A stretch of 64,000 bases of DNA from assembly GCA_963727775.1 (NCBI GenBank), contig CAVSHB010000003.1:288001-352000 (forward strand). The letters run 5' to 3'. A model generated the notes under the pieces. It was not told the origin of the DNA. It was given only the letters and a program-made list of their open reading frames with translations, and did no database searches. Positions 1 to 6,486 of the stretch are shown here, piece by piece. Position 1 is the first letter of the stretch. Each line of letters begins with the position of its first letter. The DNA comes from an uncultured Nitrospiraceae bacterium (GTDB lineage Bacteria > Nitrospirota > Thermodesulfovibrionia > Thermodesulfovibrionales > SM23-35). Both the position numbers and the translations under genes were made by a program.

Positions 1-53
1 TTTTCAAAAGTCTGTCCAGAGGAAACCCAACATTCATCATTTAGGCTAAAGCC

Positions 54-308
54 ATGATGAATGAAAAAACCATAAAAGAGAAGTGTTCCCCGTGTTTCAG
101 GAAAAAGGAGTGTTTACTTCTTCCCTCTCAACGAGGTGAATGTCTTGGGCCGTTTACCGATGTGAAAGATCAATTAAAGAAGTTTCAAGCGTACTGTGAA
201 GAAAATCTTTCAAAGCCCAAGGCAGATTTAGAAAAGGCGATACGGGAAGTTGTCTTGAAGGATTACTTAAGAAAGAAAAAGCTCTTCGATGACTCTGAGG
301 ATCGGTAA
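54..308 (+). CDS. Hypothetical protein of the integrative element (Cys-rich N-terminus)
   Basis: 84-aa ORF with CxxC...C...C; upstream of rep on the same strand. Confidence 0.55.
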   Translation: MMNEKTIKEKCSPCFRKKECLLLPSQRGECLGPFTDVKDQLKKFQAYCEENLSKPKADLEKAIREVVLKDYLRKKKLFDDSEDR

Positions 309-343
309 AGATGACGATTCGAAAAGCTTATAACTTCAATGGA

Positions 344-467
344 ATGAAAGGCGGGGCAAGGCCATCCAAGAAGCTATTGCTTTGGATGGCCGCCCCGCTT
401 TTCATCGGTGAGCTTTCAAGCTGCTTGCAGGGGTATTTGCTGGTTATGAGTAATCACCAGCAAATAC
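344..467. promoter_or_regulatory. Two strong hairpins upstream of rep; candidate rolling-circle origin (dso/oriT)
   Basis: ATGAAAGGCGGGGC..GGCCATCCAA / TTGGATGGCC-GCCCCGCTTTTCAT (344-405) and GTATTTGCTGG / CCAGCAAATAC (433-467). Confidence 0.5.
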
Positions 468-476
468 GTTACTAAC

Positions 477-1274
477 ATGATTGATTACTTAAGTCTAACT
501 CTTCATTTACCACCTGATAAGGATTACATGGAATGTCACGGGAAGATTACTGAGGATTCGTTCAGGTTACAGTTGTATAAATATATGTGCGAACTGGACA
601 GGGCAAGGATACTTTTTTGCCCGCATAAATTTGGAGACTCTACAAACGCAAAAATGCCCTTTACAAATATTGTCCTCAATCCAAAGAATTTTGACTGTTA
701 TGATGAAACGGAAAATTATATTTTTTCAATAATTAATAGTCCTGCTTTGAGTTTAGAGGATATAAATCCATCCAGAGTTGATGTTGCCGCCGATATTCCA
801 AATATTAATGTTAAGGCCATAATTGCAATGCTTCACGTCAAGGGTATCCGTAATTTTAGGATTATTGGTGACACGATTTATGCAGGACGTAATCCGAAAG
901 TAAGGGTTTATGACAAACTTGCTGAAATAAGATACCGGCTTAAAAAGAACCTGAAGGTTATAGAAGGAGAAAAGAGACTCCTTGAATCTTATAAGGACTT
1001 GACAAGATTCGAGGTTGCCGTAAGCAGACCGAAAATAAATCTGAAACAATTAAAAGAAAATCCCATAAGGTTAGCGTCCTATTTTGACAGACTCAACTTT
1101 ATTGAAATGGGTTGCAGTAATCCCTGCGGAGTTATGCAGATCATGTATAAGCAAGTGAATAGAAAGTTTAGAAAACAATTGGAAGCACTGCAGAATATGA
1201 AGCTGTTGGAAAAGATAAAAGAGATTTATATATCTGATGTCATTCAATGGTTCACTGAGAAAGAACCTTTTTAG
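477..1274 (+). CDS. Rep_trans-like rolling-circle replication initiator/relaxase
   Basis: Motifs SRVDVAAD, TIYAG, RVYDKLAE and RFEV follow the Rep_trans pattern (RxDxAxD, YxG, YDKxxE, RxE); next to xis and int. Confidence 0.65.
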   Translation: MIDYLSLTLHLPPDKDYMECHGKITEDSFRLQLYKYMCELDRARILFCPHKFGDSTNAKMPFTNIVLNPKNFDCYDETENYIFSIINSPALSLEDINPSRVDVAADIPNINVKAIIAMLHVKGIRNFRIIGDTIYAGRNPKVRVYDKLAEIRYRLKKNLKVIEGEKRLLESYKDLTRFEVAVSRPKINLKQLKENPIRLASYFDRLNFIEMGCSNPCGVMQIMYKQVNRKFRKQLEALQNMKLLEKIKEIYISDVIQWFTEKEPF

Positions 1275-1385
1275 GGTATAGGTAGATATGGATACATATG
1301 AGAAAATCGATTATAGCGCATTTCACGAAGCCGGTTTTTACGTTTTTTTGGTAAAAGCCGGAATATTCTTCTCAAGAGGTATTCT

Positions 1386-1610
1386 GTGAAGCTGATAGGT
1401 ATCAAGGAAGCATCAGAAATTCTCAGCGTAAAGCCTTCTACGCTTTATCAATGGGCAGAGTTAGGCCAAGTACCGTGTTACAAATTGAATGGCTGCCTTA
1501 GATTCGATGTAGAGAATATTATGACTTGGATTAAGTCCTGTAAAAAAGAAGTTGTCGCAAGTTATAATCCTTTTATCCAGACCAGAAGTCCCAGGAAAGG
1601 GGGCAAGTAA
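1386..1610 (+). CDS. Excisionase-like HTH_17 DNA-binding protein
   Basis: IKEASEILSVKPSTLYQW...VPCYKLNGCLRF pattern; directly before the integrase. Confidence 0.85.
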   Translation: MKLIGIKEASEILSVKPSTLYQWAELGQVPCYKLNGCLRFDVENIMTWIKSCKKEVVASYNPFIQTRSPRKGGK

Positions 1611-1612
1611 AT

Positions 1613-2665
1613 ATGGGACTCTACCGTAGAGGTAAAGTTTTCTGGTTTACCATAAAGCACGCTGGAAAGAGGATTCAGGAATCAACAGGAACTGAAAACA
1701 AGAAGTTGGCGGAAAAGATTTATGCGAAGGCTTTTAATGAGATCATCGAAGGTATATGGTTTGAGAAGCAAAAGGCGCATTCGATAACGTTCAGGGAAAT
1801 GACCGAAAAATATTTAAGCAAATATTTCAGAATTAGAGATGAACAAACGGTAAGAAAGTTGTTACCGGTATTCGGACATTTGCCGCTTGCTGAGATCACA
1901 ACTGAAATGGCGTCTGATTATAGGGATGAAAGATTGAAAAAGGTCAAACCAGCTACAGTTTATCAAGAGTTGAGTTTAATGAGACGCATGTTCAACGTTG
2001 CCCGTAAGGAATGGAAATGGCTCAGAGATAATCCTGTGGCTGATCTCTCTTTCTCTGTAGGCAATTCAAATGCAAGGTATAGATGGCTAACTCTTGAAGA
2101 AGAAAAACTACTATTGGAATGCGCAAGCCCTGAATGGCTTAAGAACCTTATTACCTTTGCGCTTCATACCGGCATGAGAAGAGGTGAGATACTTAATCTT
2201 TTGTGGAAGGATGTCGATTATACGGGGAGATTGATGAGGATTGAAAAATCCAAGAACAGCGAAAAAAGAAGTATCCCTATGTCAAAGACCGTTAATGAAC
2301 TGCTCAGAAGCCTGAAGATAAGAGACATAACAGGTCGGGTCTTTCCAGTTACTGTATCAGCTCTTAAAGACGGTTTTGAAAGGGCTGTGAAAAAAGCCTG
2401 TATAGATGATTTTCACTTTCATGATCTCAGACATACATCTGCGACAAGGTTAGTCCAGAATGGGATAGATATCTATGTGGTCAAAGAGCTTTTAGGACAT
2501 AAGACAATAACAATGACCATGAGATATGCGCATCATTACCCTGAGTCATTAAGGCACGGAGTAGAGGTCTTAGACCGGCTGTGCTACAATTGTGCTACAG
2601 TCGAGGCTTCGGACATTTGCCTTAATGTCGAAAAATCGTTTAAAATCAATTGTGGGAGTGCATAG
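1613..2665 (+). CDS. Tyrosine recombinase (phage-type integrase)
   Basis: TGMRRGE, K, FHDLRH, LGHK..MTMRY catalytic motifs; the C-terminus overlaps the tRNA-Sec 5' end. Confidence 0.95.
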   Translation: MGLYRRGKVFWFTIKHAGKRIQESTGTENKKLAEKIYAKAFNEIIEGIWFEKQKAHSITFREMTEKYLSKYFRIRDEQTVRKLLPVFGHLPLAEITTEMASDYRDERLKKVKPATVYQELSLMRRMFNVARKEWKWLRDNPVADLSFSVGNSNARYRWLTLEEEKLLLECASPEWLKNLITFALHTGMRRGEILNLLWKDVDYTGRLMRIEKSKNSEKRSIPMSKTVNELLRSLKIRDITGRVFPVTVSALKDGFERAVKKACIDDFHFHDLRHTSATRLVQNGIDIYVVKELLGHKTITMTMRYAHHYPESLRHGVEVLDRLCYNCATVEASDICLNVEKSFKINCGSA

Positions 2666-2751
2666 GGTTCTGGTGTCCCTCCCGGACTTCAAATCCGGTG
2701 TTGCCTGTTACAAACGGGCAGGGTGGGTTCGATTCCCACACGCTCCCGCCA
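2654..2751 (+). tRNA. selC: tRNA-Sec (anticodon UCA)
   Basis: CCGGA-CTTCAAA-TCCGG anticodon arm, long variable arm TGCCTGTT/AACGGGCA, T-arm GTGGG-TTCGATT-CCCAC, 3' GCCA. Confidence 0.93.
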
Positions 2752-2874
2752 AACTTTCCGTTAATATCAGTATATTAGCTTGATAAATCCTTCCCAAAAC
2801 TCTCAATGCTTGCTTTTCGATATATCCTTTCATATAATAAAATGTAAGGAGATTTAGTTTAGTAAGGAGATAAT

Positions 2875-3132
2875 ATGACCGCGCTTGCAAAGGTTACATC
2901 CAAGGGACAGATCACACTACCTAAAGAGGTTAGGGAGTTGCTCCATATCCAGACCGGCAGCATCGTGGTCTTTGAGAAGGAAGATGAAAAGCTCATTGTG
3001 AAGACTGCGAAGACGCTCCAGGATTTCAAGGGCATTCTGAAAGGCAGGCAGAAGAAGACCGAGTTTGAGGGGATGAGAAAAAAGGCAAAGGAATACGTCG
3101 GGAGAAAGGGAGCCGGTAGTGGACAAGACTAA
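2875..3132 (+). CDS. AbrB/MazE-family antitoxin
   Basis: KVTSKGQITLPKEVRELL motif; overlaps the PIN toxin gene. Confidence 0.9.
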   Translation: MTALAKVTSKGQITLPKEVRELLHIQTGSIVVFEKEDEKLIVKTAKTLQDFKGILKGRQKKTEFEGMRKKAKEYVGRKGAGSGQD

Positions 3133-3538
3133 GCGGATCGTCATCGATACGAACCTGCTCATCAGATACCTTATCAACGATGATAGTCGCAAAGCGCAGA
3201 TTGTCGACACACTTCTGAAAAAGGCCGGTAAAGGCGATATCCAAATCCTCATGCCGTCCATTGTAATTTCAGAACTCGTCTGGGTGCTTGAGAGTTTTTA
3301 TAGCATGGAAACCGCCGAGATCGCCGAAGTTGTAGACTCCATCTTAAATACGCCGGGTCTTACGGTCTCGGATGATTCGATAGTCCGTTCCGCCCTGAAG
3401 CGATACAGGAATAGGGGGGTTGATCTTGTTGATGCTTGGATCGCAGCCTTTGCTCAGGAAAAGGGAGCAAGCGAGATCCATACCTTTGACAAAAGGCATT
3501 TCAAAGGCATCGACGACGTCGCCGTGGTCCAGTTGTGA
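3119..3538 (+). CDS. vapC: PIN-domain VapC toxin
   Basis: IDTNLLIRYL, E, DLVDA, TFD acidic PIN motifs. Confidence 0.9.
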   Translation: MDKTKRIVIDTNLLIRYLINDDSRKAQIVDTLLKKAGKGDIQILMPSIVISELVWVLESFYSMETAEIAEVVDSILNTPGLTVSDDSIVRSALKRYRNRGVDLVDAWIAAFAQEKGASEIHTFDKRHFKGIDDVAVVQL

Positions 3539-3929
3539 GACAAGAGGACAGTCCGATTCCAGTGGAGATGACGAGAGAAAAGCCACCTTCGTAATGAACC
3601 CGTCACTCGTCACTGTCTTGATGCCGGATTGTCGGGAAGGCTGGGAGACGGAGAATTGAGAAGATGTGCGACAGCAGGAAAGTCAAGAAACAAGACCTTC
3701 CTTGATCCAGCGACATTTTCATCTTGGCACAAAAGCAGATGAAAAGCATTGAGATATTCTTGAATTTCCCAATTATGGATATGAATATGAATGTGCTTAA
3801 GAAAGACACTGGAAAAGTCGATCCTCAGCAGGCCTTACGTATGACCGCTTTTTGGGGTGATGACTCTTGGCGACAGGCTGCTTATAGCACAACGGATAAT
3901 TTATTCGGAATTGAGGAAAAGGCCAATAA

Positions 3930-5549
3930 CCCGAAAAATGCGTTTGCTATAGGCATACCTATAGAGTCAAGCCTATCAAGGCATTGGCTGATTTGTCGAT
4001 ATAAAAGCTAATACTGATGCTGTTTCTTGTTCCACCTCCTGAAAATTATGTTCTTTTTATCTAAATGCAGTGCAATTACCAAAACTGGGTGGAAAGTATT
4101 GTCCCACGCGGTTAAAGAGGTAGCGCAGTTTTGATCGTACTTTCTGCGTAAAGACAGAAATCCGCAATACAGGTTTCCTTCCATCCCATCCTAATTGGGC
4201 TGGAAGGACAAGATACTTGTACCGTAAGGTTTTCAAACGTTCTGTCTTTTCTTTTTGACCGAGTATCTGATGCCTGAACAGGACAAACAGATTGTAGATG
4301 AATACCCGAATAAGCATAGCCGCCTCCGTTGAGTAGAAATACTTCATCGAGAACCCGCCGAGTGCAAAATCCTCTTTCAGTTCCTTGATGGTATTCTCAT
4401 CGTTCGCCCTATGCCTGCATTGCTTCCATACCTCATATGTAGAATCATGTGAATTGGTTATCCATACGCTATAACGATAATGCCCTGTATCAAACTCATC
4501 TCCGAAAAGAGACAACTCTTTTCCCATCGCGTGCGGTCTCTTCTTGACATCCTGGCGCACTGCAATAAACCTCCTGTCGATTATCCACTCTACATGCTGG
4601 AAGAAGAACTCAGTGATCCATATCCCTTCTTCTACCTGTGCCCAGTTTTGTTGTGCGTAGATTATCCTCTGCAGCGGACGATATAGGCGAGCAGCTATGA
4701 TATATACTAATTCTCTCTTCTCAAGCAGTTCGATGAACTCCCTAAGATAAAATCCACTGTCTGCAATAATGCCCTTGATATCGATATGACCGTTGATCCT
4801 CTGCCATGTGGATTCAAAAAATCCAATAATGTTGTTCCATGACATCACGTTGCCGGGGCGGTTCCAAAGATTTATCACATACTTGTTTCTGTTAAGAAAT
4901 GCCAGAAGCGGGCTGTGGCTACCACGGCCCTTCTTCTTCGGGTTATATCCCCTCTTGACTCCCTCCTGTTTTCCGTATCGCTCAAGGACTGTAGAATCGA
5001 ACGTCAACCAGTCCTCTTTGAGCTCTTTCCAGGGGATCAATCTCTTCAAGTATCCCCATAATCCCTCCGACATCTCTTCCACTTCCTTCAGTTTTCTGAT
5101 CTTCCTGAAAAGCCTGCCCAATGTCGTCGAGGCGATAGGAAGCCTCTTCACTGCAAAAAGATCGGTGAAAATCTCCTGCCAACCAAGATAAAGTAGATGA
5201 GAAAACCTGCTGCCTCCCGCATAGATCAGAAGGATGTATGCCAATACCTTGCTGTATATCCCCATTCCATTGGGTGAACTCTCATGGATCGGAATCACCT
5301 CTTGCAAAATTCCTCTCAATTTGATCTTTTCAAAAAATGCAGCCAATAAACTGAATCCCCCATATGCCGTCATCTTCTTCTCCGTAAATCCAATCCTTAC
5401 TTTATTTATTTCGATCTTTGTGCTACATTTTGACTGCATATTTCTATTCTCCTTTCGTTTAGAGTTGATGGTCGGGTAAACCTATTGATTCTAATACGAA
5501 AGGAGAATTTCTTCGGGGATATTATTTTAGGTCAACTGCACTTTTTGGG
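3930..5549 (-). mobile_element. IS1380-family insertion sequence, copy A
   Basis: Imperfect terminal inverted repeats CCCGAAAAATGC / CCCAAAAAGTGC; target duplication ATAA at 3926-3929 and 5550-5553. Confidence 0.9.
4057..5439 (-). CDS. IS1380-family DDE transposase
   Basis: FDSTV..YGKQEG...YNP, ADSGF, R..DENTIKELK motifs. Confidence 0.92.
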   Translation of the reverse strand: MQSKCSTKIEINKVRIGFTEKKMTAYGGFSLLAAFFEKIKLRGILQEVIPIHESSPNGMGIYSKVLAYILLIYAGGSRFSHLLYLGWQEIFTDLFAVKRLPIASTTLGRLFRKIRKLKEVEEMSEGLWGYLKRLIPWKELKEDWLTFDSTVLERYGKQEGVKRGYNPKKKGRGSHSPLLAFLNRNKYVINLWNRPGNVMSWNNIIGFFESTWQRINGHIDIKGIIADSGFYLREFIELLEKRELVYIIAARLYRPLQRIIYAQQNWAQVEEGIWITEFFFQHVEWIIDRRFIAVRQDVKKRPHAMGKELSLFGDEFDTGHYRYSVWITNSHDSTYEVWKQCRHRANDENTIKELKEDFALGGFSMKYFYSTEAAMLIRVFIYNLFVLFRHQILGQKEKTERLKTLRYKYLVLPAQLGWDGRKPVLRISVFTQKVRSKLRYLFNRVGQYFPPSFGNCTAFR

Positions 5550-5745
5550 ATAATGAGGCTGTAGCAGAGGCCTTTAGACAACGTCCGAAAAAGGTCGCAG
5601 GGTTTGACTATGTGCCTAAGCCGATACCGATGAGAAATAACAAGGGTGCAACGGTTTACTACCTCTTCTTCGCTTCACAAAAGCCTGTCGCTGCAGGTAT
5701 TGTACGTGCTATATTCGATAAATACAGAAATAAGGGAAATATGTG

Positions 5746-6486
5746 ATGGGATAGAAATCAACAATAGAGTGGACGGGATCGACCTGGAATCCTGTGACCG
5801 GATGCGTAAAGATCAGTCATGGTTGTTTGAACTGCTATGCAGAGTGGATGGCAAAGCGTCTTCAGGCCATGGGGCAACCCAACTATGCCGCTGGATTCAA
5901 GCTTGCGTTACATGAGCATGTGCTCGATCTTCCGTTAAGATGGAAGAAGCCTCAAAACATTTTCGTCAATTCCATGAGCGATCTTTTTCTGAAGGGTATC
6001 CCCGAAAAATTCCTCATGAGAATATTCAATGTCATGCATCAGGCCCACTGGCATACGTTCCAGGTTCTTACCAAAAGGTCTGGCAGACTCTTAGAGCTTA
6101 GCTCTCAACTGCCATGGGCTGCTAATATCTGGATGGGTGTTACGGTCGAAAACAGAGATTATACTTACCGTATAGATCATCTGCGCGAAAGCGGTGCATA
6201 CCTAAAGTTTCTTTCCATAGAGCCTCTTCTCGGTCCTTTACCGAAGATGAATATGGAAGGCATAGACTGGTTAATCGTCGGCGGAGAATCAGGCCCTGGT
6301 GCTCGACCCATGGATCCGGAATGGGTTTTCGATATCCGCGCTCAGTGTAATAAAGCCGTTGTTCCGTTCTTCTTCAAACAGTGGGGAGGCACAAGGAAAA
6401 AGAAGGCTGGGAGGTTACTTGAAGGAAGGACGTGGGATGAAATGCCGGTAATATCAAGGCTGGATATGCGGGCAATAATTGGTTAG
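5746..6486 (+). pseudogene. Phage Gp37/Gp68 (DUF5131) family protein with an in-frame TAG at codon 3
   Basis: ATG GGA TAG AAA TCA ACA ATA GAG TGG = [43 protein letters not shown] and FFFKQWG motifs. Confidence 0.8.

Follow-up and report, generated by a model that had tools for sequence, protein, structure and literature searches.

A 7-kb tyrosine-integrase element at the tRNA-Sec gene of a Nitrospirota bacterium, with an exact copy of the tRNA 5′ half and a promoter-like leader

Insertion into tRNA genes from the 5′ side forms a rare but already published class, reportedly first described as 5′-fragment tRNA-gene islands by Zhao and Williams in 2002. According to a review of thaumarchaeal elements, which refers to Zhao and Williams 2002, recombination at the 5′ end is considerably rarer, and the Islander survey (Hudson, Lau and Williams, PMC4383910) gives a 5′ fragment for 159 of 3919 islands and, in a table, names an anticodon-centred exchange subsite. 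The nearest mechanistic neighbours of the locus described here are pTN3 and tRNA-dependent lysogeny. The integrase of the Thermococcus plasmid pTN3 (Cossu et al. 2017, PMC5495485) shares 41 bp with the 5′ part of tRNA-Leu, anticodon included, and has been linked to inversions ending at tRNA genes. In tRNA-dependent lysogeny (Guerrero-Bustamante and Hatfull 2024, PMC10865867), integration involves a core of about 10 bp, and instead of a rebuilt tRNA there is a complete phage-borne one that complements it.

The window, a stretch of 64,000 nucleotides (G000:C3:288001-352000), belongs to a genome assembly of 3.43 Mb in 4 contigs (G000). Our analysis indicated that it very probably contains the right junction of a 7-kb tyrosine-integrase element carrying an exact copy of the tRNA-Sec 5′ half together with a promoter-like leader, that recombination likely occurs in the anticodon loop, and that the result is a normal tRNA, likely transcribed from element DNA. 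The features are as follows, with plain coordinates referring to the window.

C3:283645-283727, same strand, 6,967 bp upstream and outside the window: left junction, the second 83-bp copy, its tRNA part at C3:283687-283727
C3:283728-290694, + strand: integrative element of 6,967 bp (blastn repeat, gene content), whose right-hand 2.7 kb is window 1..2694
4.27 kb beyond the window's left edge: left part of the element, with four orphan ORFs, an IS1380-type transposase and the left arm
C3:283859-283876: left-arm TGCTACA repeat pair matching the right-hand one, about 130 bp inside the left 83-bp copy
54..308, + strand: 84-aa ORF of no known family, also in a tRNA-Leu(TAA) sister element (tblastx, 42%) and in L149 (blastn)
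477..1274, + strand: 265-aa ORF, possible rolling-circle replication initiator (a lead only, from ESM Atlas features)
1386..1610, + strand: 74-aa helix-turn-helix protein, likely an excisionase or directionality factor (PF12728 HTH_17, E 3e-10; phrog_66 excisionase, E 4e-8)
1613..2665, + strand: tyrosine integrase, 350 aa (PF00589, E 2e-35; N-terminal SAM-like domain; phrog_1)
2580..2599, + strand: direct repeat pair TGTGCTACA-N2-TGTGCTACA, starting at 2580 and 2591, likely arm-type integrase sites
2612..2694, + strand: exact 83-bp repeat block, a 42-bp leader plus tRNA nt 1-41 (blastn, 100%, E 2.5e-41)
2617..2646, + strand: predicted sigma70-like promoter TTGCCT-18-TAAAAT (consensus match), within the integrase tail, 7 bp before tRNA +1
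2654-2751, + strand: tRNA-Sec(TCA) (ARAGORN; Rfam RF01852, 71 bits against a gathering threshold of 47)
2687..2693, + strand: anticodon loop, tRNA nt 34-40, putative strand-exchange region
C3:123344-123301, opposite strand, 167 kb away: third 5′ stub, tRNA nt 1-43 plus one matching leader base

The two 83-bp copies define the element. The E value of 2.5e-41 was computed in the 3.4-Mb genome, by blastn of the region against its own genome, and such an exact upstream repeat is therefore more than chance. This left copy is the displaced 5′ fragment which, according to the earlier note, should be sought at the far end of the element; the note's descriptive points, namely the tRNA-Sec gene at 2654-2751, the integrase stop at tRNA nt 10-12 and the arm-like repeats, were all correct, and its proposal of integration on the 5′ side was borne out, since the element lies upstream of the tRNA and supplies, within the 83-bp repeat, both the 5′ half and the upstream region. 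The G+C content of the element is 40% (39% without the insertion sequence) versus 45% for the genome. The catalytic motifs of the integrase are intact (R189, K212/K214, H270-x-x-R273, H296 and Y305), and its C terminus, ...KINCGSA*, places G-S-A-stop on tRNA nt 1-12, with the stop codon at nt 10-12. The 265-aa ORF gave no Pfam or PHROG match; its ESM Atlas feature similarity reached 0.95-0.98 to clusters in which 14-21% of the members carry PF02486 Rep_trans, with a low recognition score. A search of viral contigs for the integrase returned 2 distant matches only.

The repeat pairs at both element ends likely serve as arm-type integrase sites, and the TGTGCTACA pair also occurs at both ends of sister elements at tRNA-Leu(TAA) and tRNA-Glu. 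Just 5′ of the left arm repeats, an AT-rich 15-bp word (C3:283832-283846) resembles half a dif site; the same conserved word is found in the left arms of sister elements (C3:123007, L037 and L038).

The tRNA gene itself has the features of a bacterial tRNA-Sec, with an RF01852 score above gathering, a TCA anticodon and SelA, SelB and SelD genes in the genome, and blastn of the genome revealed a single full copy in the G000 assembly. As the genome encodes selA, selB and two selD genes, each selD with one in-frame TGA, this tRNA-Sec is likely in use. Elsewhere in the genome, two 95-nt tRNA-Cys(GCA) genes with a Sec-like T arm adjoin a second selB-like gene (G000:C1:1561763-1566859). Downstream of tRNA-Sec, window 2752-6486 holds an AbrB/MazE-PIN toxin-antitoxin pair, an IS1380-type transposase and a DUF5131 gene, as well as what is presumably an IHF-like site 3′ of the tRNA. 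This content suggests the remains of a conventional 3′ island; a genome search recovered no 3′ tRNA-Sec fragment in G000 for an island downstream of the tRNA.

We compared this arrangement with the described systems. As in the Islander 5′-fragment islands (PMC4383910), a tyrosine integrase gene lies inside the interval (PF00589, E 2e-35, motifs intact), the full tRNA stands at one end and a 5′ fragment lies upstream at the other, in the same orientation and 6,967 bp away (the allowed range being 2-200 kb), and exchange is assigned to the known anticodon-loop subsite, of which the fragment ends bound the 3′ side only. The third stub does not pass the Islander orientation filter. The differences from these islands are the tRNA-Sec target, an integrase clade that is wholly of the 5′ type, a −35 box that doubles as the integrase stop in the Leu members, and the presence of three 5′ halves in one genome, one of them inverted. 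The class is thus a known one, and the stop codon within the −35 box is the added detail.

The resemblance to pTN3 (PMC5495485) lies in the overlap of the integrase gene with tRNA sequence and in a rebuilt tRNA that is cut off from its original promoter. The pTN3 integrase, however, is archaeal, belongs to a different integrase family and is split by integration, whereas the window integrase stops at tRNA nt 12, before the exchange region (nt 34-41), so that no split of the SSV1/pTN3 type arises and the protein is the same in the integrated and excised states. The earlier note had the integrase C terminus spanning the attachment region; the tail does cover the arm repeats and the predicted promoter, but it ends at nt 12, 22 bases before the loop. 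With tRNA-dependent lysogeny (PMC10865867), the element shares the reliance of the integrated host on element DNA for a single-copy tRNA; unlike there, tRNA-Sec is rebuilt at the junction, with 83 bp of identity, one full tRNA-Sec at the junction and none inside the element. Conventional 3′-half elements at selC, as in the E. coli selC islands and among the conventional relatives of the window integrase, use the same target gene, and conventional-type 3′ fragments of tRNA-Sec are present in the relatives G023, G037 and G195. Our literature search, with most subscription papers, all supplements and the Islander/TIGER databases outside its scope, found no publication on a 5′-type integrase clade or on a replacement promoter at selC.

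The point of exchange was approached through the displaced fragments. Such a 5′ fragment was found at 7 of 39 co-oriented integrase-tRNA loci; upstream DNA reached 6 kb or more at 12 of the 39, among them all seven. In each of these seven fragments the identity ends 4-6 nt after the first anticodon base. The Sec fragments end at nt 41 in G025 and G038, and at nt 43 in G272, G322 and the third G000 copy. From this recurring end point we infer that exchange takes place at the anticodon loop (nt 34-40); because the two halves at the window locus are identical, the 5′ bound of the exchange is unreadable there and the fragment ends give its 3′ bound only. A crossover near the D-loop, as had been suggested, is rejected, since the halves stay identical as far as nt 41, one base beyond the anticodon loop. 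No empty site in a close strain was available for comparison, as the 60 relatives include no congener of G000, and three DNA sequencing runs, which gave scattered contigs only, contained neither an excision joint nor a piece spanning the element.

The closest named relatives of the window integrase are from Thermodesulfovibrionales and other Nitrospirota. Loci from four sources (33 genome, 80 metagenome, 2 viral and 30 relative) yielded 134 distinct C-termini that were kept, 83 of which have a tRNA within 260 bp. Among alignments of at least 200 aa with a tRNA within that distance, all 21 integrases at least 59% identical to that of the window are co-oriented with the tRNA (19 Leu and 2 Sec), versus 9 of the 47 below 59%; the rows in these counts are kin, some of them near-copies, and not independent. 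A tree of 57 of the 134 integrases (partial sequences, duplicates and those without a tRNA within 260 bp were left out) contained a 20-row group entirely of the 5′ type with an SH-aLRT of 99 in a quick search without bootstrap, and the two full-length Sec rows (SH-aLRT 100) nest among the Leu rows of that group. In the wider family, the starred branches of this quick tree force at least five orientation changes, which makes these integrases a natural series for studying change of target and orientation. On sequence evidence, the window integrase belongs to a defined Nitrospirota clade that replaces 5′ halves, mostly of tRNA-Leu, together with a predicted promoter. This clade has passed from tRNA-Leu to tRNA-Sec, a change of target that would have been easy, the two kinds of target having near-identical anticodon arms.

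A complete 6.6-kb sister element of the co-oriented, 5′-replacing type sits at tRNA-Leu(TAA) (G000:C1:1145684-1152390, L004), with a 64% identical integrase, a 60-bp repeat from −19 to +40 and a homologous left arm. The layout of the window recurs at tRNA-Sec in L149, L178, L207 and G298, and in the G017 and G038 remnants. Other 5′ tRNA fragments in G000 derive from tRNA-Leu(TAG) and tRNA-Arg(CCT), and 3′ fragments from the Glu, Leu(CAA), Lys, Thr, Arg and Asn tRNAs. Insertion into tRNA-Sec on its 5′ side is also seen for integrases of other subfamilies, which have repeats of the TCACG or GTCACA type (L232, L233 (G322), L234 (G272) and L181), and selC is therefore a repeated target of 5′-type elements in the phylum.

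Next to the tRNA, the leader carries promoter-like boxes. All 29 co-oriented rows at or above 59% identity (short C-terminal matches included) have boxes scoring at least 9/12 at 4-13 bp before the tRNA, as against none of the 44 convergent rows and 4.5% of shuffles; conventional elements, which restore the 3′ half and keep the host promoter, thus have no promoter-like box at the matching place. A regional promoter scan gave 5 such sites versus 4.1 expected, which is near chance, so that the promoter remains a prediction from position and conservation.

The −35 box is tied to the integrase reading frame. The TGA of the −35 box (TTGAC) serves as the integrase stop in 20 of the 25 Leu rows but in none of the four Sec rows, where the box reads TTGCCT, the in-frame codon is TGC (window 2618-2620) and the frame runs on. 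TTGCCT thus turns the TGA stop into TGC, and the integrase frame overlaps the tRNA with its next stop at nt 10-12. In the window, L178, L207 and the G017 remnant the stop falls at tRNA nt 12; L149 has it at nt 105. The frames of L149 and of the G038 remnant cross the whole tRNA, and their tails would change on excision. If the 12 codons preceding the tRNA take 12 substitutions, the tail stays open by chance with P = 0.40, and the overlap is therefore not evidence of selection. Selection for an open integrase tail was unsupported on this count, with G298, which targets tRNA-Sec with a TTGACC box and an integrase stop within that box, as a counter-example. The overlap is likely a by-product.

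Taken as a mechanism, these data would give the following course of events. The circular form would carry, in order, int, the arm repeats, the promoter, the tRNA 5′ half and the loop. Integration would set the element's promoter and 5′ half before the host's 3′ half, and would strand the resident promoter at the left end, where it precedes only a non-functional 41-nt stub; because the displaced half is identical to the resident one, the rebuilt tRNA is normal. The lineage would have arisen among elements doing likewise at tRNA-Leu genes, whose anticodon arms are nearly identical to that of tRNA-Sec and whose integrase stop is the TGA in the −35 box, so that a TTGCC-type box would give a cysteine codon and let the frame read to tRNA nt 10-12. 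Excision between the 83-bp copies would leave the same tRNA, the same 42 bp and both boxes, the change being limited to DNA upstream of the −35 box and to any read-through from int. Since the tRNA and its −35 and −10 boxes would stay the same, selenocysteine decoding should not depend on integration state, contrary to what had been proposed for a locus whose two states yield the same tRNA and the same 42-bp leader; no on/off dependence on this element is expected. The selC gene of G000 likely runs on a predicted promoter of the element type, and selenoprotein synthesis in these bacteria can thus run from (predicted) promoters of mobile origin.

The history of the site was examined through the leaders and the third stub. 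The left copy already has an element-type leader, and the third stub has a host-like promoter and a type of arm repeat different from that of the window element; the tRNA-Sec site was therefore likely hit more than once. The third stub comes after uvrD-like and membrane-protein genes and is followed by GTCACA repeats and then a 6-kb tRNA-Glu-type element, and its leader resembles those of G022, G023 and G036. Promoter relics of the clade persist before selC once an element decays, as in G017, G025 and G038, where the leader before selC or its stub is accompanied by degenerate arm repeats or by what is left of an integrase. An alternative history, which we consider unlikely though it keeps appreciable weight, is a single insertion into the native site: the selC promoter and 5′ half in the left copy would be native to the host, the element would simply have the 42-bp leader in common with them, and the third stub would be unrelated debris. 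It agrees with the lack of arm repeats or an integrase remnant upstream of the left copy and with the TTGCC-type −35 boxes at selC in eight relatives without arm repeats (G022, G023, G027, G036, G005, G011, G015 and G041), but the left leader aligns better with the Sec-element leaders of other hosts (L149, L178, L207 and G017) than with the leader of the third stub, and the left flank is accessory DNA with transposases, as against the uvrD-like and membrane-protein genes ahead of the third stub. As such boxes also occur in arm-repeat-free relatives, the promoter module may first have moved from host to element or the reverse. A single insertion alters the history only and not the mechanism.

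The relatives share no fixed selC neighbourhood, so synteny neither places the native site nor shows the third stub to be it. The neighbourhood varies widely (L036-L055 and L119-L137), and in about ten family members selC follows a block that maps to G000:C3:70-77 kb, where G000 itself has no selC trace. The inverted, distant position of the third stub may stem from an inversion driven by an integrase, as with pTN3, from a series of steps or from misassembly; a one-step inversion between inverted repeats was rejected, as no fitting repeat pair was found. From the tRNA-Sec 5′ stub on, element ends are stacked along G000:C3:123344-116850 (L002:13344-6850, minus strand), in the order of the stub, GTCACA repeats, a 16-bp tRNA-Glu core, the 6-kb element (which has a dedicated integrase and a 3′ fragment of tRNA-Glu), and another left arm. 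This Glu core recurs, preceded by a similar lead-in of 15 bp, after the tRNA-Arg(CCT) 5′ stub at C2:11520, as though a secondary site for one element family were borne by a different one.

We also considered whether the integrase-tRNA overlap could be a selected switch that reports integration state. The integrated int message would end in a full tRNA-Sec, RNase P cutting at tRNA +1 would strip the integrase of its last three codons and its stop, and tmRNA would tag the protein; the excised circle, carrying half a tRNA, would keep the stop and a stable integrase. One base of the −35 box (TGA stop to TGC) would then have created retroregulation through host tRNA processing and ribosome rescue. 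Such a switch would resemble lambda sib retroregulation and the degradation tags of integration-dependent immunity. Several observations fit: the integrase stop lies at or beyond tRNA nt 12 in all five members of the TTGCCT group and in the G038 remnant, no terminator-like site was seen on the + strand between int and the tRNA, acceptor pairs 1-6 form at a probability of at least 0.99 in the predicted fold of the integrated state, and the genome encodes both RNase P RNA and tmRNA. We nevertheless regard the switch as improbable, since an open tail is expected by chance (P = 0.40 given 12 substitutions), G298, G322 and L181 target tRNA-Sec with a stop upstream of the tRNA, the stop is likewise upstream in 25 of 25 Leu rows, and a translating ribosome may block folding of the acceptor stem. 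If real, the switch would give an element a novel means of sensing its own integration. Our search, with most subscription papers and all supplements outside its scope, found no publication on RNase P or nonstop control of an integrase. The switch would supplement the anticodon-loop mechanism described above, not take its place.

It is very improbable that either the repeat or the third stub arose by misassembly of this genome, with its many repeats and mixture of strains. Contig ends do overlap at 89-99% identity within a similar island (the C3 end versus the C2 start), the genome holds at least 18 IS1380-type copies, and no reads bridge the element in the available runs; against this, over about 220 bp the junction sequence after the stub agrees with independent genomes (G025 at 78% and G038 at 71%), and the int-to-leader stretch is reproduced without a single difference in one low-depth contig of run X1.

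The pairing of the tRNA was compared across relatives. Of 60 relatives searched for tRNA-Sec, 56 had a match, and 37 genes were compared. The earlier note had pointed to pairing defects, and these are real: the Rfam model and the comparison with relatives showed that the window tRNA-Sec has a C8·A mismatch in its acceptor stem and a D-stem with unpaired positions. They are not peculiar to the locus, however, but are the normal form of tRNA-Sec in the 37 relatives. The D-stem mismatch occurs in 37 of 37, and position 8 is T in 21, C in 13 and G in 3. The first 27 nt agree with those of the window in nine relatives, none of which has upstream arm repeats, and in three of the 37 (G003, G022 and G036) the whole gene is the same, with no integrase match or arm repeats upstream of tRNA-Sec in the fetched flanks. 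Given the D-stem mismatch in all relatives and the identical gene in element-free ones, the imperfect stems are this lineage's normal tRNA-Sec. The perfect D-stem partner that had been predicted for a displaced fragment was present in 0 of the 37 relatives and the predicted acceptor start in 1, and the displaced fragment is identical to the full gene letter for letter. Hence practically nothing is left of the model in which exchange at the D-loop gave a foreign, defective 5′ strand and a mispaired, chimeric tRNA-Sec with integration-dependent activity: the mismatches exist and the element does supply the 5′ half, but displaced and resident halves are the same to nt 41, six in-clade fragment pairs have zero mismatches within the tRNA part, and the 100% identical tRNA of three element-free relatives is contrary to a chimera, which is ruled out by the identical displaced half and the shared D-stem mismatch.

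Some further loci were noted. At tRNA-Arg(CCT), a 5′-type island of about 52 kb (G000:C2:11755-11709 and C3:537999-590001) crosses the overlapping C3 and C2 ends; its 5′ fragment is on a different contig and is joined only via these overlapping ends, and a 3′-type island occupies the opposite side. At G000:C4:293578-294664, an integrase with 25% identity to that of the window points into a reversed tRNA-Leu(TAG) 5′ fragment with an element-type promoter, the full tRNA-Leu(TAG) being on C1 and the reversed fragment on C4. Finally, a 2.5-kb contig filed under a Candidatus Aenigmatarchaeota MAG (L059) carries a window-type integrase and a bacterial-type tRNA-Leu near-identical to Nitrospirota loci, and is likely misbinned.
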